From UHGV virus genome UHGV-1300782: a stretch of DNA of 12,558 nucleotides; one strand, given 5' to 3'. A program made the position numbers and the translations under genes. Positions 148 through 10,584 of this stretch are shown piece by piece. Position 1 is the first letter of the stretch, and every line of letters begins with the position of its first letter. Below the pieces are notes generated by a model. That model was not told the origin of the DNA and searched no databases. It saw nothing but the letters and a program-made list of their open reading frames with translations. The stretch comes from a virus.

Positions 148-166
148 AACTTGTTACCTCGGTCTG

Positions 167-243
167 TTACCGTTGAGGTAATAATTATGCTTATTTGGTT
201 TGGTGTCAATAGATATGAGTTAAAAAAATTACCCGTAAGGTAA
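167..243 (-). promoter_or_regulatory. PL-like leftward early promoter bracketed by two operator palindromes
   Basis: Read on the minus strand: -35 TTGACA (plus 204-209), 17-nt spacer, -10 AATTAT (plus 181-186). Perfect palindromes TTACC-GTTGA-GGTAA at 167-181 (abutting the -10, over the start site) and TTACC-CGTAA-GGTAA at 229-243 (20 bp upstream of the -35). Operator centres are 62 bp apart. Confidence 0.6.
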
Positions 244-250
244 TCTATCT

Positions 251-300: not shown

Positions 301-885
301 TTATTGTTTGCTTTTTTCGTTCTGGTTGATGACAAATTCAATGTAACTTTCGATCTTTGCTTTCTCGGTTTCGGGTAACAATGCGTAGCGCGAGCGGTCA
401 TAGTTGATGGTCGCAGGGTCGTGCGGGTGAATCAGTAATTCATAGCCGTGACGCCCGAATGCGGATGCCACATTCTCCAGGGTGGAAATGGAAACGCTAA
501 CCTCATTGTTTAACAGGCGGCTGATTGTCACCTGGGCGACGCCGGATGCGCGGTGAAGTTTTCCCTGTGTTGAAAGGTCGCGGCTTTCGCTCATCCAGCG
601 TTCCAGGTTGTGAGCCGCCAGCTGACCAATGTCGCTTGGGCCGACAGGCTGAAAACCTTCCTGAGAAAGCGAGCGATCGATATCAAGCCAGTTACGGGGT
701 TTATTGGCGGCAGCTTCAATTTTTCGCGCAACCTGGTCGCCGATAACCTTCTTGCCAAGAGCCCAGCGGTTTACCAGATTTGCCTGAGTTCCAAGTTTTT
801 CTGCCATCCGCGTCTGAACACCATTGAATTCACGGTCGATCAAGTCGTTGAGATTTTGCCTGCGGACGTCCTGGATACTTTTCAT
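301..885 (-). CDS. Prophage immunity repressor, tandem helix-turn-helix, no recognisable S24 autopeptidase domain
   Basis: 194-codon ORF divergent from the cro-like gene, with operator palindromes on both sides. N-terminal segment QTRMAEKLGTQANLVNRWALGKK and C-terminal segment SGVAQVTISRLLNNEVSVSISTLENVASAFG both read as HTH units. No Ala-Gly cleavage site or Ser/Lys dyad motif seen. Own terminator at 251-280. No SD before the ATG. Confidence 0.7.
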   Translation of the reverse strand: MKSIQDVRRQNLNDLIDREFNGVQTRMAEKLGTQANLVNRWALGKKVIGDQVARKIEAAANKPRNWLDIDRSLSQEGFQPVGPSDIGQLAAHNLERWMSESRDLSTQGKLHRASGVAQVTISRLLNNEVSVSISTLENVASAFGRHGYELLIHPHDPATINYDRSRYALLPETEKAKIESYIEFVINQNEKSKQ

Positions 886-1340: not shown

Positions 1341-1420
1341 CAAAAAACCAAATATGGTTGATCTTTTTTTTGTGTCAGCACAAAATAACCGTAATCCCAA
1401 TACTAATAACAGGGATTACC

Positions 1421-1636: not shown

Positions 1637-2452
1637 ATGAGCAGACATGCAACAGATTGGGCCTGGGAGACAGATCCAGGTAGCTCGTCATTAAAGCTCA
1701 TACTGCTCTCGATGGCTGACAGAGCCGATGAATATAACCTCTGCTACCCCAGCATAGAACGCCTCGTTAAAGACACTTGCCTGAATAAAAAAACCGTGCA
1801 GGCCGGGCTTATATCGCTCATGAAAATGGGGCTTATTTCAGATACCGGAGAGAGAAAGGGAGCGACGAAAAGAGTGCGGGTTTTCTCTCTTAATATAACC
1901 AAAAACGGGAACATTAAAGGCAACCGGGAAGGGGGTAATGAACCCGAAAACGGTAATGTTACCGAAAACGGGAATATACCCAAAAACGGGATGTTGAATG
2001 ATCCCAAAAACGGGATGTTGAATGATCCCAAAAACGGGATCCAGAACCAGTCATATAACCAGTCATTTAACCAAGAGAGGGAGAGCAGGACAAAAACCGG
2101 GGATTCTGTTCCTCATGACCCCGGCGCAAACAACGCCGTGATGAATAACTTTGTTCCTCCTGGTGGGCCAGGGCAATTAGGCAAATTTGTCATGCATGAA
2201 CAATGGCAGCCATCAGATGACTTTCTTCGGAAAAGCTCATTGCAGGGGATCTACCTGGACAGTCTGCCAACGGCACAGGAACTTGCAGAGTTCAGAATTT
2301 ACTGGATGGCTGAGGGTAAGGCATACCATCAGGCACAGTGGGAGCAGAAGCTGGCAAGGCGGCTGCAGATTAGCAGACAGAAGCAATCAACATTACCTGA
2401 TAACAACGTTCCGCACTGGAACAGCCCTGAAGCGTGGGAGGATTTCTTGTGA
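1637..2452 (+). CDS. Replication initiator (lambda O-like role), N-terminal winged-helix replication-protein domain, iterons embedded in the coding sequence
   Basis: GGAG 7 nt before ATG 1637. N-terminus LKLILLSMADRADEYNLCYPSIERLVKDTCLNKKTVQAGLISLMKMGLI matches the HTH pattern I associate with phage replication initiators. The central region is low-complexity (PKNGMLNDPKNGMLNDPKNG) because it is encoded by the iterons. Stop overlaps the next gene's start (GTGA). Confidence 0.7.
   Translation: MSRHATDWAWETDPGSSSLKLILLSMADRADEYNLCYPSIERLVKDTCLNKKTVQAGLISLMKMGLISDTGERKGATKRVRVFSLNITKNGNIKGNREGGNEPENGNVTENGNIPKNGMLNDPKNGMLNDPKNGIQNQSYNQSFNQERESRTKTGDSVPHDPGANNAVMNNFVPPGGPGQLGKFVMHEQWQPSDDFLRKSSLQGIYLDSLPTAQELAEFRIYWMAEGKAYHQAQWEQKLARRLQISRQKQSTLPDNNVPHWNSPEAWEDFL
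1898..2041. repeat. Iteron array, probable origin of replication
   Basis: Six copies of CC(A/G)AAAACGG(G/T)A at about 1898, 1943, 1961, 1978, 2002 and 2026. The last three sit in an exact 24-bp tandem CCCAAAAACGGGATGTTGAATGAT (1979-2002, 2003-2026, partial third to 2041). Followed by a short direct repeat CCAGTCAT (2049-2056, 2063-2070). Confidence 0.75.
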
Positions 2453-3234
2453 ACAACGTTTTTACCGCGATACAAAACCGTGACGGAGAAGCCCTTTCTC
2501 GCATGTCAGGTTATGAGCATCAGTACGTCAACAATGACAATGTGGTGAACATGTCAGCAGAGAGGCTTGTTGATGCCCTTTTCAAACAGCTGAAACAACT
2601 GTTTCCGGCGGCAGTGGTAACCAACCTGAAGACGCCAGAGCAGGAAGTTGCTGCAAAACAGCAGTGGATTGCTGCGTTTGCCGAAGGGGGAATACGTACC
2701 CGTGAACAGGTTTCTGCTGGTATGCGCCACGCCCGCGCCAGTGAATCTCCGTTCTGGCCGTCGCCAGGGCAATTCATCAAGTGGTGTAAAGACAGCAAGA
2801 TGGTTCTTGGCGTCACCATTGACGATGTGATGGCGGAGTTTCACCGGTACAGCAAGGAAAAAAGTTTATATCCTGGTGGTCCCGAAAGATTCCCGTGGCG
2901 GCATCCGGTTATGTACTGGGTCGTATGTGATACACGCCGTGCAATGTATCAGCGCCAGCTTAGCGAGATTGAGGTTGAGAAACACGCGCGCAGGCTGCTC
3001 GATGATTGGGCGAAAAAGGTGGCTTCCGGACAGCAGATACCCGATCCGGTGATCAGCATACAGGCAAAGCCAGAACCCATGAGTACACCTCCGGACACAG
3101 GGAGAGACGTTTACCATCCACCAGGGCGAAGTTTCGGGTGCATGCCTAACGCCGCCACCCTGGGGGGAATAACACCGGCGCAGTGGCTGATGGAGGAATA
3201 CAGGCGGGGAAAGGCGGCAGGATTTATCAAGTAA
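2449..3234 (+). CDS. Lambda P-like replication protein (helicase loader)
   Basis: GGGAGGA (2436-2442) 6 nt before GTG 2449, overlapping the upstream stop; the 2434 start in the ORF track is the same frame. Stretch QQWIAAFAEGGIRTREQVSAGMRHARASESPFWPSPGQFIKWC closely resembles, as I recall it, the lambda P region containing PSPGQF. Confidence 0.65.
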   Translation: MNNVFTAIQNRDGEALSRMSGYEHQYVNNDNVVNMSAERLVDALFKQLKQLFPAAVVTNLKTPEQEVAAKQQWIAAFAEGGIRTREQVSAGMRHARASESPFWPSPGQFIKWCKDSKMVLGVTIDDVMAEFHRYSKEKSLYPGGPERFPWRHPVMYWVVCDTRRAMYQRQLSEIEVEKHARRLLDDWAKKVASGQQIPDPVISIQAKPEPMSTPPDTGRDVYHPPGRSFGCMPNAATLGGITPAQWLMEEYRRGKAAGFIK

Positions 3235-3239
3235 TACCA

Positions 3240-3259
3240 GCGCGATGGCGCATTTTTTT
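3240..3259 (+). terminator. Weak intrinsic terminator after the P-like gene
   Basis: Short stem GCGC-gatg-GCGC (3240-3251) followed by a T7 run (3253-3259). The stem is only 4 bp, so strength is uncertain. Confidence 0.4.
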
Positions 3260-3270
3260 ACGTCTCGATG

Positions 3271-3348
3271 ATTACCTTCTAGGTAATAAAATATTCTAAA
3301 ATCTATTGATTTCGTGTCTTATGTGGTTTTTAATTACCTCAGAGGTAA
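3271..3348 (+). promoter_or_regulatory. Second promoter-operator cassette, rightward, in front of the accessory gene block
   Basis: ATTACC-TTCTA-GGTAAT (3271-3287), -35 TTGATT (3306-3311), 17-nt spacer, -10 TTTAAT (3329-3334), then TTACC-TCAGA-GGTAA (3334-3348) abutting the -10. Operator centres are 62 bp apart, as at PL. The right half-site GAGGT also serves as the SD for the ATG at 3352. Confidence 0.6.
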
Positions 3349-3351
3349 ATC

Positions 3352-3696
3352 ATGAGAAAACAGATACAGGCTCTTGGTCGACTCAAAACAGGCCAGATGA
3401 ACAAAACAGAATCTGCGTATTGCCAGCACCTTGAGCAGCGTAAACGTGCAGGGGAAATCGCCTGGTATCGATTCGAGGGTATCAAGCTGCGGTTAGCTGA
3501 CAACACGTTCTATACGCCCGATTTTGCTGTGATGCTCGCCACCGGCGAGATGGAACTGCACGAAGTGAAAGGTTTCTGGACCGACGACGCCAGAGTGAAA
3601 ACCAAAGTCGCCGCAGATCAGTATCCGTTCCGAATCATCGGGGTAACGGTTAAACCAAAGAAAGCAGGTGGTGGCTGGAACATCGAAGAGTTCTGA
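3352..3696 (+). CDS. DUF1064-like protein with a PD-(D/E)xK nuclease-type motif
   Basis: 114 codons; GAGGT 4 nt before the ATG. Segment YTPDFAVMLATGEMELHEVKG fits PD ... E-x-K spacing. The DUF1064 family assignment is from memory. Confidence 0.6.
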   Translation: MRKQIQALGRLKTGQMNKTESAYCQHLEQRKRAGEIAWYRFEGIKLRLADNTFYTPDFAVMLATGEMELHEVKGFWTDDARVKTKVAADQYPFRIIGVTVKPKKAGGGWNIEEF

Positions 3697-3757
3697 ATCG
3701 ACGATCTTTTTAGTTATCAATGTAATCAATAAGTTATGTGGATAAGCGAGGGTAAAG

Positions 3758-4318
3758 ATGGAAAGTAATATCAAAGGGTTAGTTTACGCCGGGCATGAGA
3801 TGGCTTCGGAACTGAAAGCAGAATGTGGTGCCGTTGATATGCGTAGTGTGGCAAAGCTGATCAGCGATTTGGCAACGCAACTGGAAGTGCAACTGGTGCG
3901 TGCTAATGCGATGGCGTCGGAGAATGAGGCGTTGAAGTCGAACCTGATTTACTGGGGCGGCGAAGATTCAGGGGCTGTCAGAAGTCCGCTTGATTACGCC
4001 CGTGCAGCCGGGCTGGAATCTGGAGAGGAGTTTGAGATGCAAGTGGCAGCCAGAATGCCGAACCTGACTTATCGCGTTGTGTCGAATTCCCGATTCAGAA
4101 CAACAATAGAACTGGTTGACGGATCATTGCCGGAAACCCCAGCCACCGATGCTTTTCTGGCTGAAGTACGGGCGCAGGCGTTTAATGACCTTTGCTCGGC
4201 GTTCGTTAAACACGCGAATCTCGCGGGAATGGATGATGGTGAGCTAGTGAGTCTTAAATATGCGACGGACGCCCTGCTGCATTGTGCGGAACAGCTTCGC
4301 AAAGGAGGCAACCAGTGA
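3758..4318 (+). CDS. Hypothetical protein (186 aa)
   Basis: GAGGGT 4 nt before ATG 3758; stop overlaps the next gene's start (GTGA at 4315-4318). No family recognised. Confidence 0.6.
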   Translation: MESNIKGLVYAGHEMASELKAECGAVDMRSVAKLISDLATQLEVQLVRANAMASENEALKSNLIYWGGEDSGAVRSPLDYARAAGLESGEEFEMQVAARMPNLTYRVVSNSRFRTTIELVDGSLPETPATDAFLAEVRAQAFNDLCSAFVKHANLAGMDDGELVSLKYATDALLHCAEQLRKGGNQ

Positions 4319-4860
4319 GTGTAACGGTTGAAAAGATTGATGTGTTGTCATTCGTTATAACCGGTGCAGAGCGACTAGATCCGGTTCGAGTGATGATTGA
4401 AAACTACGAACCTGGTAAGGGAAGAATCACCATCACCAGCTACGGAAAAGCGTGGACTGCGGCTTGGTTTGCTATGGGCGGTGATGATGTGCAGACGTTC
4501 ATTAAGCGAGTCAGCAACGACTATCTAATCGACAATTTCGACCCTCAACTGCTAAGCACGGTCGACGATGACAACGATGCAAATCTGCTTTTCGTGAAGT
4601 CAGAAATCATAAAGTTACGAAGAGAGAGAGAAATCGACGCTGTACAGGCTCGCGAAATGTGGGACGAGGCGGAAAACGCCGATGACGTAAAAGAAAGCTG
4701 CTGCTGTTTCGGCGTCGGTAACAAACTACTGAATCTCTTTGGTGATGATCCGTGGTATGCCAACTGGCCAACGATACCAAACCCGAAATACCAGTATCTG
4801 GAACGCGTACTTAATGCAGTGAGAGACGGTCTTAAGCAAATAGAGAAGGTGGAACCATGA
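4315..4860 (+). CDS. Hypothetical protein (181 aa) with a Cys triplet (ESCCCFGVG)
   Basis: AGGAGG (4303-4308) 6 nt before GTG 4315; the TTG at 4282 in the ORF track is the same frame but overlaps the upstream gene. Stop overlaps the next ATG (ATGA at 4857-4860). Confidence 0.6.
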   Translation: MSVTVEKIDVLSFVITGAERLDPVRVMIENYEPGKGRITITSYGKAWTAAWFAMGGDDVQTFIKRVSNDYLIDNFDPQLLSTVDDDNDANLLFVKSEIIKLRREREIDAVQAREMWDEAENADDVKESCCCFGVGNKLLNLFGDDPWYANWPTIPNPKYQYLERVLNAVRDGLKQIEKVEP

Positions 4861-5156
4861 CTGTATGTCTTATTGATAAACGTCGACGTGGGCAACAAAT
4901 ACCATCTGTTGAAATGCCGAATCACACATGGTTTTGCGTACTTGATATCGATGGTATGGATACGTTGGTTGACACTCGTCATTACTGCGATACCGCAACA
5001 GCTACTCCGGCGAAAGCAAAGAAAATGGCTGCTCTGATAGAAAACTGGACTCCACCTGATGGTTGGTGCAATGGGAATGATCGAGATTGGCACGAAAAAA
5101 TGAAGGGCTATATCTGCGATTTTTTACGTAAATGCAACGGCTTCAGGGTGATGTGA
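4857..5156 (+). CDS. Hypothetical protein (99 aa), Cys/Trp-rich
   Basis: GAAGGTGG 4-5 nt before ATG 4857, translationally coupled to the upstream gene; stop TGA 5154-5156 is followed one base later by the next ATG. Confidence 0.6.
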   Translation: MTVCLIDKRRRGQQIPSVEMPNHTWFCVLDIDGMDTLVDTRHYCDTATATPAKAKKMAALIENWTPPDGWCNGNDRDWHEKMKGYICDFLRKCNGFRVM

Positions 5157-5157
5157 C

Positions 5158-5442
5158 ATGAGCAAGATTGACTATCAGGCACTGCGTGAAAAGGCAGAGA
5201 AAGCAACGTGTGGTGTGTGGTCGCTCGAATATGGAGAGGGCCGATTTGATGGTGATGATGCACTAATTCATCGCGAGGCTGCTGGGTATATTCCCATTTG
5301 CAGAATTGAAGGAGCGCATCCAGAAAGCGGTTTCGATGAAGATTTCCAAATGGATTCGAAAGAATGCATTGACGTAATTCGTGAAGAAGTAAAGCGATGG
5401 AATGATTCCCGCGCCGCTGGTATTCGCATCAAAGGAGAGTGA
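5158..5442 (+). CDS. Ead/Ea22-like family protein (tentative)
   Basis: AGGGTGA 6 nt before ATG 5158. N-terminus ALREKAEKATCGVW resembles the LRELAEKATPGPW-type motif I associate with Ead/Ea22-like prophage proteins. Confidence 0.5.
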   Translation: MSKIDYQALREKAEKATCGVWSLEYGEGRFDGDDALIHREAAGYIPICRIEGAHPESGFDEDFQMDSKECIDVIREEVKRWNDSRAAGIRIKGE

Positions 5443-5443
5443 G

Positions 5444-5635
5444 ATGAACGGACAAATATCAATTGTTCGACCAGGAGCATGTGACGATCGCGAAATACGA
5501 ATGATTATTCGTCTGGCGAGGGGGAAAACAATAACTGCTCTCATTACTCCAGAAAATCTCGCATTAGCATTAACCGGAAAGTCAGACCTGCCAGTAGAGC
5601 TAAAGCTGCGAAATGTTGAGATTAAGGTGAAATAG
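5444..5635 (+). CDS. Hypothetical small protein (63 aa)
   Basis: AAAGGAG 6 nt before ATG 5444, one base after the upstream stop; the 5402 start in the ORF track would overlap the previous gene. Confidence 0.55.
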   Translation: MNGQISIVRPGACDDREIRMIIRLARGKTITALITPENLALALTGKSDLPVELKLRNVEIKVK

Positions 5636-5637
5636 TT

Positions 5638-6390
5638 ATGAATACTCTTACCAAAGAATGGTTACAGAACACGATTACCGGAATTGAGTCGATAATAGAC
5701 GATAAATCGTTTGTATGTAGTGAAATAGCATTCGAAATAGGTGTGGTTAACAACATACTTACCGCATTTAAAATTGCACTGGCATCGCTGGCAGCAGTAT
5801 CGGATGAACGGGCAGCCTATGAATTATTTATGGAGAAGCGTTTCGGGGAATCTGTAGATCGCCGCAGGGCAAAAAATGGTGATAGAGAATACATGGCATG
5901 GGATATGGCGCTTGGCTGGATTATCTGGTGTCACCGCGCCGCCATGCTTCAGGGAGGCCAACCTGTAAACCAAACTTACAACTTGCCAGAATTAATCGAA
6001 GGCATGGAAGTTTCCATTGATGTAAGCACTTGTGATGCTGATTTAGGTAATCGCTATTTCGGCACCGTCACCGAGGCGTTAGAACTTGATACTGCCAAGA
6101 ATGGTTACATCCTCCTGGTTCAGGACGCAGAGCCAAACTTCGATGTAAATGGCAACTCTCCGGCAACTCCGGATAGTTGGATAAGCTGTAGTGAGCGAAT
6201 GCCGGAAGACACCAAAATGTTACTGGCATTTAGTCAAGGTGAAATCGTGGCCGCATATTGGAACTGGGTTGTAAATCCAATTGATTACAAAAAATACAGA
6301 GCTTTCACGTATTTATCAGGAAATATCCTAGATGACGTAACCCACTGGATGCCGCTGCCAGAACCGCCGCAGGAGGTTAACCGTGGCTAA
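5638..6390 (+). CDS. DUF551-like protein (tentative, C-terminal WMPLPEPP motif)
   Basis: AAGGTGA 7 nt before ATG 5638. C-terminus SERMPEDT ... THWMPLPEPP resembles the conserved tail of DUF551 prophage proteins as I remember it. Confidence 0.55.
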   Translation: MNTLTKEWLQNTITGIESIIDDKSFVCSEIAFEIGVVNNILTAFKIALASLAAVSDERAAYELFMEKRFGESVDRRRAKNGDREYMAWDMALGWIIWCHRAAMLQGGQPVNQTYNLPELIEGMEVSIDVSTCDADLGNRYFGTVTEALELDTAKNGYILLVQDAEPNFDVNGNSPATPDSWISCSERMPEDTKMLLAFSQGEIVAAYWNWVVNPIDYKKYRAFTYLSGNILDDVTHWMPLPEPPQEVNRG

Positions 6391-6664
6391 CCTGCAACTT
6401 GCCGTCAAAGGTGAATACTTCGATGCCATGATTCGCGGAGATAAAACGGAAGAGTATCGCCTGTGTAATGACTACTGGGAAAAGCGAATTATGTTCCGGG
6501 AATATGACCGCCTGATTATCACAAAGGGATATCCGAAGCGTGACGATTCCAGCCGCAGAATTGACGTTCCGTATGGCGGCTATGAAATCAAGACAATCAC
6601 ACATCCGCACTTCGGCGATAAACCGGTAAAGGTATACGCGATAAAGGTAAATATTGATGGCTAA
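6383..6664 (+). CDS. ASCH/PUA-like small protein (tentative)
   Basis: AGGAGG (6371-6376) 6 nt before GTG 6383, overlapping the upstream stop. N-terminus LAVKGEYFDAMIRGDKTEEYRL matches the ASCH-type pattern (I..I.....GKKT.E.R). Confidence 0.5.
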   Translation: MANLQLAVKGEYFDAMIRGDKTEEYRLCNDYWEKRIMFREYDRLIITKGYPKRDDSSRRIDVPYGGYEIKTITHPHFGDKPVKVYAIKVNIDG

Positions 6665-6995
6665 ATCAGCAGCAGAGCGCAAAGCCGCTCAGAGAGCCAG
6701 ACAAGCTGCATCTGGTGTACGTAAGCTGGAGATTGTGCTTGATGCTCAGGAAATTGAAATGCTGGAGCGTAACTGTGCCACACGTCGCCCCGGGCGTGCG
6801 CCTTACGAATTTGGTGAGTATATAGCGTTACTGATCCGCCAGGATGATGCACGCGTGCGCGGGCGTATAAAATCGATCAGCAGAAAACGTTGCGGTAAGT
6901 GCGGCGAGAGAGTTCCTGTGAATTCATGCCCGTGTAATGGTGACTCGCAATGCTGGGTAACCAAAGGCTGGCATGAAACGAAATTAATAGTGTGA
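6657..6995 (+). CDS. Basic protein with a C-terminal Cys cluster (CGKCGERVPVNSCPC), candidate zinc-binding regulator
   Basis: AAGGT 8 nt before ATG 6657; basic helical N-terminus AERKAAQRARQAASGVRKLEIVL; Cys cluster C-x2-C-x9-C-x-C. Last gene before the terminase operon. Function inferred from composition only. Confidence 0.5.
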   Translation: MAKSAAERKAAQRARQAASGVRKLEIVLDAQEIEMLERNCATRRPGRAPYEFGEYIALLIRQDDARVRGRIKSISRKRCGKCGERVPVNSCPCNGDSQCWVTKGWHETKLIV

Positions 6996-7003
6996 CATGT
7001 CAC
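6991..7003. repeat. Palindrome TGTGACATGTCAC, copy 1
   Basis: The 13-mer recurs exactly at 9442-9454; the 12-bp core GTGACATGTCAC is a perfect palindrome. It spans the stop of the 6657-6995 gene. Confidence 0.7.
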
Positions 7004-7012
7004 GAAGGTGTT

Positions 7013-7225
7013 ATGCCAAAAATACGCTACGACCTTGAAGATATGAGAGATAACTCAGCAAATTTTCCGAAAGAGGTTAAATTTCTCATGCATAAGTATG
7101 GTTGCGCCAGGAGGGATATAGTTATCGACAGTCAGCACCCTTGCGGCGAGGATGTAATTTTCATTCGCGGTAAATGGGAAGGGTATCTTGACGAGAGTTT
7201 TTACGATGAATTTGATGGACTTTGA
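7013..7225 (+). CDS. Hypothetical small protein (70 aa)
   Basis: ATG 7013 preceded by GAAGGTG; the ORF track's GTG at 6992 is in frame and cannot be excluded. Stop at 7223-7225 is followed by a terminator. Confidence 0.5.
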   Translation: MPKIRYDLEDMRDNSANFPKEVKFLMHKYGCARRDIVIDSQHPCGEDVIFIRGKWEGYLDESFYDEFDGL

Positions 7226-7230
7226 ATACT

Positions 7231-7257
7231 GCCGCCAACTATGGCGGCTTTATTTTG
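7231..7257 (+). terminator. Intrinsic terminator between accessory block and terminase genes
   Basis: Hairpin GCCGCCA-acta-TGGCGGC (7231-7248) followed by TTTATTTTG (7249-7257). Confidence 0.7.
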
Positions 7258-7260
7258 CAT

Positions 7261-7292
7261 GGTACTATTACCACAACGGTAACTATTACCAC
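7261..7292. repeat. Direct repeat GGTA(A)CTATTACCAC x2 upstream of terS
   Basis: Exact 10-mer CTATTACCAC at 7265-7274 and 7283-7292. Each copy forms an inverted-order palindrome of the operator half-sites (GGTA-CTAT-TACC at 7261-7272; GGTAA-CTA-TTACC at 7278-7290). Confidence 0.65.
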
Positions 7293-7302
7293 GGTGGTTA
7301 TG

Positions 7303-7896
7303 ATGCCTGCTGAACCTAAAACCTATAAACGCAAATCAACGCAATTTAAGCCACTAACAGCAATGCAGGAGGCTTATTGCCAGTCATACATCAAAACGCC
7401 TGAAAACCAGACTCAGGCAGCGATTAACGCAGGATTCTCCCCAAATACAGCGGCAGTTAAAGCCAGTGTCATGATGCGCGATGAACGCATTCAAAAACGG
7501 ATTGCCGAGCTGATGGAAGAGCGCAACAAACGAATGCGCGTCAGTGCTGATTACGTTCTCATGCGCCTGGTGGAGATCGACCAGATGGACGTGATCGACA
7601 TCCTCAACGACGATGGGAGCCTTAAGCCAATCCGCGAGTGGCCGAAAATCTGGCGCACTACGCTTAGCGGCTTTGATCTGTCATCGACCATCATGAACAT
7701 GAACGAGGATTCGATAGAGACAATCCTCAAAAAAATTAAATGGCCTGACAAGGTGAAGAACCTCGAACTGATTGGTAAGCACGTCGACGTCAACGCATTC
7801 AAAGAACGCCTGGATGTTAATGTGAATGTGACAATTGCTGATCGCATAGCAGCAGCCAGGAAGCGACTCAAAGAACGTCAGGATGGTAATCAGTGA
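7303..7896 (+). CDS. terS: Terminase small subunit (Terminase_2-type)
   Basis: Segment LTAMQEAYCQSYIKTPENQTQAAINAGFSPNTAAVKASVMMRDERIQKRIAELM matches the small-terminase pattern (LT..QE.FC.EY ... QAAI.AGYS). Start placed at ATG 7303 (or 7300) after GGTGG; the TTG 7222 extension in the ORF track reads through the terminator and repeats. Stop overlaps the terL start (GTGA). Confidence 0.7.
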   Translation: MPAEPKTYKRKSTQFKPLTAMQEAYCQSYIKTPENQTQAAINAGFSPNTAAVKASVMMRDERIQKRIAELMEERNKRMRVSADYVLMRLVEIDQMDVIDILNDDGSLKPIREWPKIWRTTLSGFDLSSTIMNMNEDSIETILKKIKWPDKVKNLELIGKHVDVNAFKERLDVNVNVTIADRIAAARKRLKERQDGNQ

Positions 7897-9458: not shown

Positions 9459-9866
9459 CTAGAAAATAATTTCATCAAATGCAGCATTTATTGCCTTTGC
9501 TTCGCTAATGGCGCCTTGTTTATCGACAATAGCTTTTTTACCAAGCACCTCGGCAAGGCACTGTAGCTTCATGTTGTATAAGTGTTCGCTCATGTAATCA
9601 TTATCACTTTTTGCTTTAGCGCAAACAGAGCGAGAAATATCAAACACATCGCCTTTTTCCATTTCAGAACGTTGTGCTGTTATCCAGTCATGGAACGTAA
9701 CGCTAGTACCATGGTCTTCTCTAAGAGTTAACCCGGTCAGCCCCTCACTCTGAATTACTTCGTAATGCATTTCATTACCAGCAAAAACGCCATAAAAAAT
9801 GCAGTCTTCAGCCTGAACGATACGAGAATATTTTAATGGCCATTCATTTAGATACTTAGCCAACAT
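9459..9866 (-). CDS. Hypothetical protein (135 aa), reverse-oriented AT-rich insert gene (moron candidate)
   Basis: Minus-strand ORF. Start placed at ATG 9866-9864 (MLAKYLNEWPLKY...) because the longer TTG-initiated version (9929) translates the upstream terminator hairpin. No good SD. My hand count over 9461-9640 gives about 37-42% GC against about 48% in a terL sample (8401-8460). No predicted membrane segment by eye; no family recognised. Confidence 0.5.
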   Translation of the reverse strand: MLAKYLNEWPLKYSRIVQAEDCIFYGVFAGNEMHYEVIQSEGLTGLTLREDHGTSVTFHDWITAQRSEMEKGDVFDISRSVCAKAKSDNDYMSEHLYNMKLQCLAEVLGKKAIVDKQGAISEAKAINAAFDEIIF

Positions 9867-9891
9867 ATCAATTGTCTTGATAATCTCACCT

Positions 9892-9916
9892 AAAAAAAAT
9901 GCCCGGCGAACCGGGC
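9892..9916 (-). terminator. Strong intrinsic terminator immediately upstream of the reverse-strand gene
   Basis: Minus strand reads GCCCGG-TTCG-CCGGGC-A-TTTTTTTT (plus 9916 down to 9892): 6-bp GC stem, UUCG tetraloop, U8 tract. Ends about 25 nt before the ATG at 9866. Confidence 0.75.
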
Positions 9917-9993
9917 GAACTGGAAGCAATGAGTTATGCCTTCCGTGGCTGTACTGGTTTACAGCATGAAGTCATCGCAATGGCGTCCTGCTG

Positions 9994-10036
9994 TAAAAAG
10001 GGCGGTGATAGTCCTTCAAGGGAAACCATCACCGCC
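9994..10036 (-). terminator. Candidate terminator of the tRNA
   Basis: On the minus strand a 9-bp stem GGCGGTGAT / ATCACCGCC (plus 10036-10028 and 10009-10001) around an 18-nt loop, followed by C-TTTTT-A; about 44 nt after the tRNA 3' end. Confidence 0.45.
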
Positions 10037-10080: not shown

Positions 10081-10157
10081 TGGCGTGGCATGCAGGATTC
10101 GAACCTGCGACCAACCGCTTAGAAGGCGGTTGCTCTGTCCAGCTGAGCTAATGCCAC
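10081..10157 (-). tRNA. tRNA-Arg (anticodon UCU)
   Basis: The reverse complement folds by hand into a 77-nt cloverleaf: acceptor GTGGCAT/ATGCCAC, D-stem GCTC/GAGC, anticodon stem ACCGC/GCGGT with loop CTTCTAA (anticodon TCT), variable loop TGGTC, T-arm GCAGG-TTCGAAT-CCTGC, discriminator G, encoded CCA. Confidence 0.85.
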
Positions 10158-10479: not shown

Positions 10480-10523
10480 TTACCTGAAAGGTAATAATTC
10501 GTGCGTTAAATGTCAACTGTCTA
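10480..10523 (-). promoter_or_regulatory. Third promoter-operator cassette, leftward, feeding the tRNA/insert unit
   Basis: Minus strand reads TAGACA-G-TTGACA ... AATTAT-TACC-TTTCA-GGTAAC. Operator TTACC-N5-GGTAA at plus 10480-10494 abuts a -10-like AATTAT (plus 10494-10499) exactly as at PL. -35 candidates are TAGACA (plus 10518-10523, 18-nt spacer) or TTGACA (plus 10511-10516, spacer too short). A lone GGTAA half-site sits at 10552-10556, where a second operator 62 bp away would lie. Confidence 0.45.
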
Positions 10524-10584
10524 CGATAAATAAATCATATGTGGTTAAATTGGTAATAATTTAATTGCGTACGGAGTCATTGAT

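Follow-up and report, generated by a model that had tools for sequence, protein, structure and literature searches.

Here we describe a predicted promoter, which we call Pmid, within positions 3271-3348 of a 12,558-nucleotide stretch of the virus genome UHGV-1300782 (this whole stretch is the window in what follows). The segment lies between the replication genes and a block of ten small accessory open reading frames (ORFs), and it holds two copies of an operator palindrome, O1 and O2, together with a -35 and a -10 hexamer. In sequence comparison the best matches of the window are temperate podophages of the Uetakevirus group, namely Escherichia phages PAS61, phiv142-3, ZX5, TL-2011b and phiV10, and more distant matches are the Salmonella phages epsilon15, SPN1S and SPC32H; on these matches we assign the window to a temperate Uetakevirus (an epsilon15/phiV10/SPC32H-like podophage) of E. 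coli. In the reading that we prefer, and that we consider fairly probable, 3271-3348 is a delayed-early promoter controlled by the phage repressor Rep: O2 would be the primary operator over the -10 and +1, O1 would be the auxiliary operator near -62, and a Rep tetramer would bridge the two. The elements on which the argument leans are these:

3240-3261, plus strand: weak hairpin GCGC-GATG-GCGC with A-T7-AC behind it, 10 nt 5' of O1; it may be a leaky terminator of the replication-gene transcript
3271-3287: O1, upstream operator (candidate auxiliary), ATTACCTTCTAGGTAAT, centre about 62 bp upstream of the predicted start
3306-3311, plus strand: -35 hexamer TTGATT, with a conserved CTA just 5' of it
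3329-3334, plus strand: -10 hexamer TTTAAT, without an A at position 2; its final T is the first base of O2
3334-3348: O2, downstream operator (candidate primary), TTACCTCAGAGGTAA, spanning about -7 to +8
3352-7225, plus strand: ten small, tightly packed accessory ORFs, the putative Pmid operon
7231-7256 (7231-7248), plus strand: strong intrinsic terminator closing the accessory block, -16.2 kcal/mol, z = -4.1
167-244, minus strand: PL cassette, with O1 at 228-244, TTGACA at 209..204, AATTAT at 186..181 and O2 at 167-181
941-1003: OR region between rep and cro, three operator copies (941-955 perfect, 958-972 with two mismatches, 989-1003 with one mismatch)
301-885, minus strand: rep, 194 amino acids, Pfam domain HTH_3 only, homologue of SPC32H Rep

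A preliminary description of this DNA had read 3271-3348 as a copy of the PL promoter-operator cassette, and every element was indeed found where that description had placed it. On the minus strand PL consists of an operator (243..229), 19 nt, TTGACA, 17 nt, AATTAT and the operator TTACCTCAACGGTAA (181..167), with ATTACCCGTAAGGTAAT at 228-244 as the counterpart of O1. At Pmid 19 nt likewise lie between the 15-mer core of O1 and the -35, and the -35/-10 spacer is 17 nt. Operator starts are 62 bp apart at both cassettes (167/229 at PL, 3272/3334 at Pmid), which bears out the claim that the operator centres are exactly 62 bp apart in both, and a repeat finder independently matched 206-245 with 3270-3309 and 167-182 with 3333-3348. 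The final T of the -10 is fused with the first T of an operator at Pmid, at PL (AATTAT), before terS (TGgTACTAT) and at a leftward promoter at 10494-10523. The downstream half-site had also been said to double as a Shine-Dalgarno sequence, and GAGGT (3342-3346) is in fact part of the right arm of O2, 5 nt 5' of the ATG at 3352. The same overlap of operator and Shine-Dalgarno occurs at the terS module and in a variant layout of the Pmid locus (see below); it is a form of sequence economy. Operator arms or lone half-sites serve as Shine-Dalgarno sequences elsewhere too: the first PL gene has GAGGTAA-N7-ATG (154-160, minus strand; a lone half-site), the Pmid gene has GAGGTAA-N3-ATG, and terS has GGTGG within its imperfect operator (7294-7298). 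Such units are predicted to have very short leaders, of about 11 nt in the case of Pmid.

The cassette had further been called a duplicate of PL. This is true of its layout and holds at best marginally for its sequence: identity beyond the operators and hexamers is limited to 16 of 36 positions, most of them in the ATCTA adjoining the -35, and 948 of 20,000 shuffles (about 5%) were equal or better. A recent duplication of PL was rejected on these figures, and because of them common descent of the two cassettes would be at most ancient or partial. According to the repeat finder, the O2-proximal half of Pmid is closer to the reverse complement of 1328-1354 than to PL. The 27 nt ending in O2 (3320-3346; TATGTGGTTTTTAA plus operator) are 78% complementary to 1328-1354, and the motif ATGTGGTT recurs at 10543-10550, upstream of a gp3-like gene. 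Just 5' of the Pmid -10, TrTGG(t/a)T is conserved above what is expected of a promoter spacer. The CTA abutting the -35 (3303-3305; 210-212 at PL) is invariant or nearly so in all relatives, at PL and Pmid alike (CTATTGA); sigma-70 promoters do not need a CTA at this place.

The palindrome TTACC-N5-GGTAA occurs in seven perfect copies in the 12.5-kb window, where about 0.012 would be expected, so that chance is excluded; sites with at most two mismatches number 22, against 3.2 +/- 1.8 in shuffles. The perfect sites lie at PL, at OR, at 3272/3334, before terS and before the portal region, and the arms are identical at 167, 229 and 941. With the same arms at PL and OR, the palindromes of 3271-3348 can be regarded as operators of the PL type, as had been proposed. 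The OR copies overlap the promoter PR (TTGTTA-17-TATTAT, 986-1014).

We then compared the locus across relatives, using ten complete phage records (nine distinct, since typing phage 9 is identical to phiV10 here) and six prophages of further species. These 15 elements come from Escherichia, Salmonella, Enterobacter, Klebsiella, Citrobacter, Scandinavium, Superficieibacter and 'Ca. Erwinia dacicola'. All 15 carry the operator pair at the orthologous place, spaced by 62 bp in 14 and by 61 bp in Scandinavium, and always directly 5' of the first gene after the replication genes, which is of DUF1064 type or encodes a RuvC-type resolvase. Related genomes contain 8-11 perfect operator sites each. A larger sample was drawn from IMG/VR by the upstream hairpin alone (GCGC-N4-GCGC-A-T7-AC), independently of the operators. 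Among its 107 distinct cassettes, 104 have two perfect sites and 102 have them exactly 62 bp apart; the remainder comprise three cassettes with a different two-operator layout (one of them mismatched in the second site) and two at 62 bp with one arm mismatch. In the 102 cassettes the arms of both operators are invariant. The centre of O1 occurs in 38 variants (0.5 bit per position), and that of O2 is held to T-N-A-G-R, so that the Shine-Dalgarno sequence is kept. The TTG of the -35 is invariant and its A nearly so. In all 104 cassettes with two perfect sites O1 starts 32 nt after the start of the hairpin.

Over 120 loci (1.17 Mb) we counted 588 perfect sites where about one would be expected. 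The distances between neighbouring sites are quantised (17/18, 20, 30, 48, 61-63, 75/76 and, twice, 81 bp), and 187 of the 198 neighbour pairs at 61-63 bp are spaced by exactly 62 bp. The three cassettes of the variant layout (L024:194-270, L060:6352-6430 and L086, minus strand) have the hairpin with T7AC, TTGCAA, O1 within a 17-nt spacer and AATTAT fused to O2; the operators are 18 bp apart, the ATG of a RuvC-like gene follows, and TTGCAA-17-AATTAT is a good promoter. As this layout occupies the same locus, what is conserved is a Rep-controlled promoter and not one sequence. Judged by this pattern of invariance, the arrangement at 3271-3348 is under strong purifying selection, and on that evidence of selection the feature is functional. 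In the Scandinavium sp. prophage (L015) the distance is 61 bp both at the accessory-block pair (6561/6622) and at the PL pair (10640/10701), and in 70 of the IMG/VR loci with two pairs it is 62 bp at both. Hence it might be possible that the two operator clamps, PL and Pmid, co-adjust.

The Rep encoded in the window matches Rep of SPC32H (PDB 5D50_A) with E = 3.5e-42 over residues 1-190 (phmmer). The only Pfam domain in it is the helix-turn-helix HTH_3; an S24 peptidase domain is lacking. Its identity to the Rep proteins of SPC32H, epsilon15, BUCT554 and Tyrion is 43-78%, and Rep identity among the elements with the operator pair is 41-78%. SPC32H Rep is a tetramer that is inactivated and disassembled by the antirepressor Ant, not by RecA-promoted cleavage (PMC9638917). 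Homologues of Rep bind palindromes through pairs of DNA-binding domains drawn from different dimers (PMC9638917; PMC9986798), and Rep carries a tetramerisation domain of the looping type (PMC9986798). In structural terms, according to the latter paper, the way in which repression works 'has not been extensively characterized'. In ZX5, a phage 97.7% identical, overexpression of Rep lowers holin and endolysin mRNA by more than 99.9% (PMC9782041); that paper has no content on operators or on a promoter of the Pmid type.

The operators, their arrangement and their persistence in relatives, together with the kinship of Rep to the SPC32H repressor, lead us to infer that Rep binds O1 and O2, that Pmid acts as a promoter and that the DNA between the operators loops. 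Rep on O2 (3334-3348) would exclude RNA polymerase from the -10 and the start, and O1 (3271-3287), about 62 bp or roughly six helical turns upstream, would boost the occupancy of O2 through a bridging Rep tetramer. The role of auxiliary operator would fall to O1 because at -62 it is too far upstream to occlude the polymerase, and its fixed distance and helical phase fit bridging: 62 bp are about 5.9 helical turns, and the operator spacing is under constraint. The A+T-rich promoter DNA between O1 and O2 would be looped out; it has 21% G+C (79% A+T), against 49% G+C for the window. Once Ant inactivates Rep, Pmid would fire and the ten genes at 3352-7225 would be transcribed to the terminator at 7231-7248, probably supplemented by read-through over the weak upstream hairpin.

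As a promoter, TTGATT-17-TTTAAT matches the consensus at nine of 12 positions, and on a rough sigma-70 weight matrix it ranks 17th among 125,270 configurations of the window, with PL third and PR fourth. Several observations weigh against the reading of Pmid as a Rep-controlled promoter. It scores below PL and PR, and a consensus promoter scan does not list it, because the scan demands an A at position 2 of the -10. Such an A is near-essential for sigma-70 promoters, and in the 102 cassettes the -10 in the 17-nt register is TTTAAT (62 cassettes) or TTAAAT (33 cassettes) and never has one. Shifting the -10 by one base gives TAAATT in the Salmonella/Citrobacter type and only TTAATT in the E. coli type. 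The 47-bp loop between the operators would be very tight. Read-through from upstream is likely to add to transcription from Pmid once Rep is gone, and over so weak a hairpin it could even account for most expression of the block. A literature search, to which the primary papers on SPC32H and epsilon15 were out of reach, found no transcript start, footprint or reporter data for any member of the family. Lastly, a profile search of species-representative genomes returned six further full-length Rep homologues (41-74% identity), all with the TTACC/GGTAA arms, and across the full-length homologues there is thus no variation of the arms with which that of Rep could be compared; the other matches to the Rep profile share the N-terminal 70 residues alone and have no TTACC/GGTAA sites. 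In our view Pmid is a genuine promoter; with a -10 that has no A at position 2 in essentially all relatives, it would be weak or depend on a further factor. Inspection by eye found no match to sigma-54 or other alternative promoter motifs at Pmid. A minus-strand promoter-like sequence (AAGACA-16-TAGAAT, 3320..3293) was put down to chance, its -10 not being conserved beyond the E. coli clade, and a site for integration host factor (IHF) at the apex of the loop (AATCAATAGATTT, minus strand, 3299-3311) was dropped because inspection by eye showed no conservation of it among relatives of the Salmonella and Citrobacter type.

The poor -10 would be explained if the cassette had no autonomous promoter at all, a reading to which we give a minor but real chance. 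The block would then be reached by read-through from PR or from a promoter at 1358-1386, plausible over so weak a hairpin, and the Rep sites would act as roadblocks or insulators, O1 stalling the polymerase on the run of seven U. The active site of a roadblocked polymerase stands roughly 13-14 bp upstream of the block, and this stall distance suits the position of O1, whose edge follows the last U of the hairpin's U-tract by 12-13 nt in all 104 cassettes with two perfect sites; by our own reading of the sequence, the U-tract also ends 11-14 nt before an operator after the terminators of rep, cro and the accessory block. However, a roadblock does not need an O2 placed exactly over the -10 and +1, nor does it account for a -35 TTG and a -35/-10 spacing that are invariant and match PL position for position, or for the good promoter that the variant layout has at the same locus. 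A roadblock alone would also have little to do, because the upstream promoters are themselves repressed in the lysogen. There is a rather small chance that both ideas apply, with a tetramer microloop of about six turns between O1 and O2 in which O1 doubles as a roadblock and makes the weak hairpin with its U7 tract a Rep-dependent terminator. If this were true, one repressor molecule would close Pmid and at the same time shield the operon from transcripts started further upstream, and removal of Rep by Ant would open the promoter and read-through together. The same logic would extend to the other terminator-operator modules, and it would give a rationale for the unusual Rep tetramer with its DNA-binding pairs from different dimers.

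It seems improbable that O1 is an activator site in a class I position, from which a Cro-like protein or Rep at low occupancy recruits polymerase while O2 represses. The centre of O1 is indeed about 62 bp from the predicted start, its distance to the -35 is invariant, and the -10 is conserved but weak; yet PL, with identical geometry, is a strong promoter that works unaided, neither of the two operators is the more perfect and no differential occupancy is evident, and the Cro-like protein would be a hypothetical ligand of O1. That protein bound at O2 should also block ribosome loading, as the preliminary description had suggested, we regard as very improbable and do not uphold. It is true that GAGGT (3342-3346) lies within O2, 5 nt from the ATG, and that this overlap is conserved. 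However, Rep is a helix-turn-helix protein for duplex palindromes with no RNA-binding domain detected, and the second arm of the palindrome is on the other DNA strand and thus absent from single-stranded mRNA; because Rep binds duplex DNA it cannot hinder the loading of ribosomes. Finally, we give hardly any credence to the idea that the cassette is left over from a duplication of PL and without function, or that it resembles PL by chance. The merely marginal likeness to PL outside the functional elements (16/36) would agree with a relic, but more than 100 distinct cassettes, across seven genera, keep arms, spacing and -35 unchanged amid freely varying neighbouring positions, and this pattern of conservation effectively refutes it.

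A Rep-controlled promoter at Pmid raises the question of how well the accessory block is separated from its surroundings. The upstream hairpin (3240-3259) has a stem of only 4 G-C pairs and a fold z of -1.8, and it was not called by the terminator scan. Its stem and T7 are invariant in 14 aligned genomes, with a variable loop, and in phiV10 the orthologous hairpin (35038-35057) bears the annotation of a putative terminator. Stems of 7-8 bp and z of -4 to -5 distinguish the terminators that follow rep (261-280), the cro-like gene (1292-1311) and the accessory block (7231-7248). Because of this difference in stem length, the accessory block is firmly closed at its 3' end and leaky at its 5' end, and with a stem of 4 bp read-through is likely once the upstream promoters fire. 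Among the Pfam and PHROG matches of the window ORFs there is no antiterminator of the N or Q family, an absence that is unproven since small unassigned ORFs remain. The preliminary description had considered the block a separately repressed unit rather than one reached from PR by antitermination. Operators, boundaries and the lack of a detected N or Q agree with separate repression; the exclusion of read-through from PR is not borne out, given the 4-bp hairpin. A separately Rep-controlled unit is still the best reading of the block because of the PL-type operators and geometry, the conservation, the terminators and the absence of a detected N or Q.

Far from being a lone copy of PL, Pmid belongs to a set of at least six modules in the window that carry operators: combinations of terminator, operator and promoter occur at PL, at PR, at the unit after tR1, at Pmid, at terS and in the tRNA/portal region. 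Apart from rep and the accessory block, the genes that they serve or adjoin are arranged as follows:

147-1, minus strand: start of the leftward early operon
1040-1270: cro-like gene
between the cro-like gene and the O/DnaT-like gene: 66-amino-acid ORF
1637-2452: O/DnaT-like initiator gene with internal iteron-like repeats
2434-3234: P-like helicase loader gene
after the accessory block, in this order: terS, terL, a leftward ORF, tRNA-Arg and the portal gene

Behind the cro-like gene come the strong terminator (1292-1311), a degenerate operator, GCACCTTAAAGGTAA (1326-1340), which has one mismatch in phiV10 and Tyrion, and a conserved rightward promoter (TTGATC-17-CAAAAT, 1358-1386) that precedes the 66-amino-acid ORF and the replication genes. 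This promoter and operator behind a strong cro terminator suggest that each unit has its own promoter and does not depend on antitermination. A leftward promoter-like sequence (CTGACA-16-CATATT, 1378..1351) would cross the operator at 1326-1340, antisense to cro.

In the terS module the order is terminator (7231-7248, strong), extended -10 (TGgTACTAT, 7260-7268, conserved), two operators and an ATG at 7303. Its operators are 18 bp apart (7268-7282 perfect, 7286-7300 with one mismatch), and the -10 is fused to them. The true start of terS is likely to be 7303, because the TTG at 7222 used in the annotation of PAS61 would put the terminator and two operators inside the gene; the short form of terS is annotated in TL-2011b and epsilon15. 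The packaging operon thus seems, from its sequence, to have its own Rep-controlled promoter. In the tRNA/portal region a perfect operator (10480-10494) is overlapped by the leftward promoter-like sequence TTGACA-17-TACCTT (10516..10488), which has the top matrix score in the window, and a second such site (TAGACA-18-AATTAT, 10523..10494) also lies over this operator. About 320 nt downstream of 10480-10523 on the minus strand lies tRNA-Arg(tct) (10081-10157), and beyond it on the same strand are a strong terminator (10036..10001) and an Sf6 gp66-like ORF (9929..9459). With this arrangement Rep may control the phage tRNA. In the record of epsilon15, sites for RNase III, IHF and the repressor are placed in the tRNA/portal region. 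Most transcription units of the phage would in this way come under direct control of Rep through terminator-operator-promoter modules, so that lambda-style antitermination would not be needed.

Part of this has precedents. The record of epsilon15 (NC_004775) has the same 17-bp palindrome ATTACC-N5-GGTAAT and annotates its copy at 35906-35922, the orthologue of 3271-3287, as 'protein_bind: repressor', with other repressor sites at PL, before terS, before gp3 and before the tail fibre gene. Its O2 partner (35969-35983) is unannotated, and the paired 62-bp layout, the identity with PL and the conservation across genera are absent from the record. The annotation appears to be computational; it is reportedly associated with Kropinski et al. 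2007. The repressor of the window is homologous to that of the SPC32H Rep/Ant switch (PDB 5D50, 5D4Z), and in SPC32H a pair of these operators (35972/36034), again 62 bp apart, precedes a DUF1064-type gene, as in the window; unlike SPC32H, with its Ant switch, the window itself is without an ant gene. Kim & Ryu 2013 and Kim et al. 2016 are said to deal with the protein and the lytic switch of SPC32H, as far as secondary citations show. Like PL/OL and PR/OR of lambda, the window has an immunity repressor on palindromic operators that overlap early promoters, and its gene order is also that of lambda (repressor, cro-like gene, replication genes, accessory block). In lambda the nin region lacks a promoter under CI control and depends on transcription from PR that N antitermination carries into it. 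The accessory block differs in having an operator pair to itself, and the window ORFs gave no match to N or Q.

Phage P1 with its C1 operators and mycobacteriophage L5 with its gp71 stoperators are further examples in which one repressor serves many scattered, asymmetric sites, and they share with the window the dispersal of repressor sites at or just past the start of most transcription units. The stoperators of L5 are orientation-dependent blocks of elongation, whereas the sites of the window are palindromic, fused to the -10 and present as phased pairs at two promoters; a stoperator reading was rejected since the arms are perfect palindromes and not asymmetric. For looping there are the precedents of lac O1/O3, gal OE/OI and the cooperativity of lambda CI at 5-6 helical turns. 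In these systems and in Rco of pLS20 a multivalent repressor bridges a primary operator and an auxiliary one whole turns away, as is proposed here, and the looping-type tetramerisation fold of Rep is also that of Rco (PMC9986798). A distance of 62 bp is at the short end of known loops, and looping by Rep would, unlike that of these dual-operator systems, be inferred. Immunity-repressor operators at secondary promoters and dual-operator looping are thus well known, and the upstream site is annotated in epsilon15; a conserved 62-bp clamp common to two promoters is undescribed as far as we checked.

If most units (early left, early right, replication, accessory, packaging, tRNA/portal) indeed open with a terminator followed by one or more Rep operators, phages of the epsilon15 type would be wired unlike lambda, which relies on few early promoters and antitermination, and inactivation of Rep by an antirepressor would release the whole genome directly. 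The rigid 62-bp pair would offer a concrete DNA target for the Rep tetramer, whose structure is characterised and whose function is under-described, and would suit work on looping. Pathogenic E. coli and Salmonella commonly harbour phages of this type as prophages, and such phages serve as chassis for reporters and biosensors. Knowledge of their promoters and operators, and corrected gene starts such as that of terS, might improve annotation and engineering.

All ten ORFs of the accessory block have PHROG family matches. Its members include a DUF1064/resolvase-like protein (3352-3696, Pfam DUF1064) and Eae/Ea22-like proteins; the ninth of the ten (6654-6995) falls into phrog_536, 'transcriptional regulator', and has no match in Pfam, NCBIfam or PDB. 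In a search for known RNA families the tRNA was the only one found in the window. Within the O/DnaT-like gene, at 1891-2043, there are four to six iteron-like direct repeats with a consensus of about AAYCCCAAAAACGGGA and spacings of 18 and 24 bp, which probably represent the replication origin.

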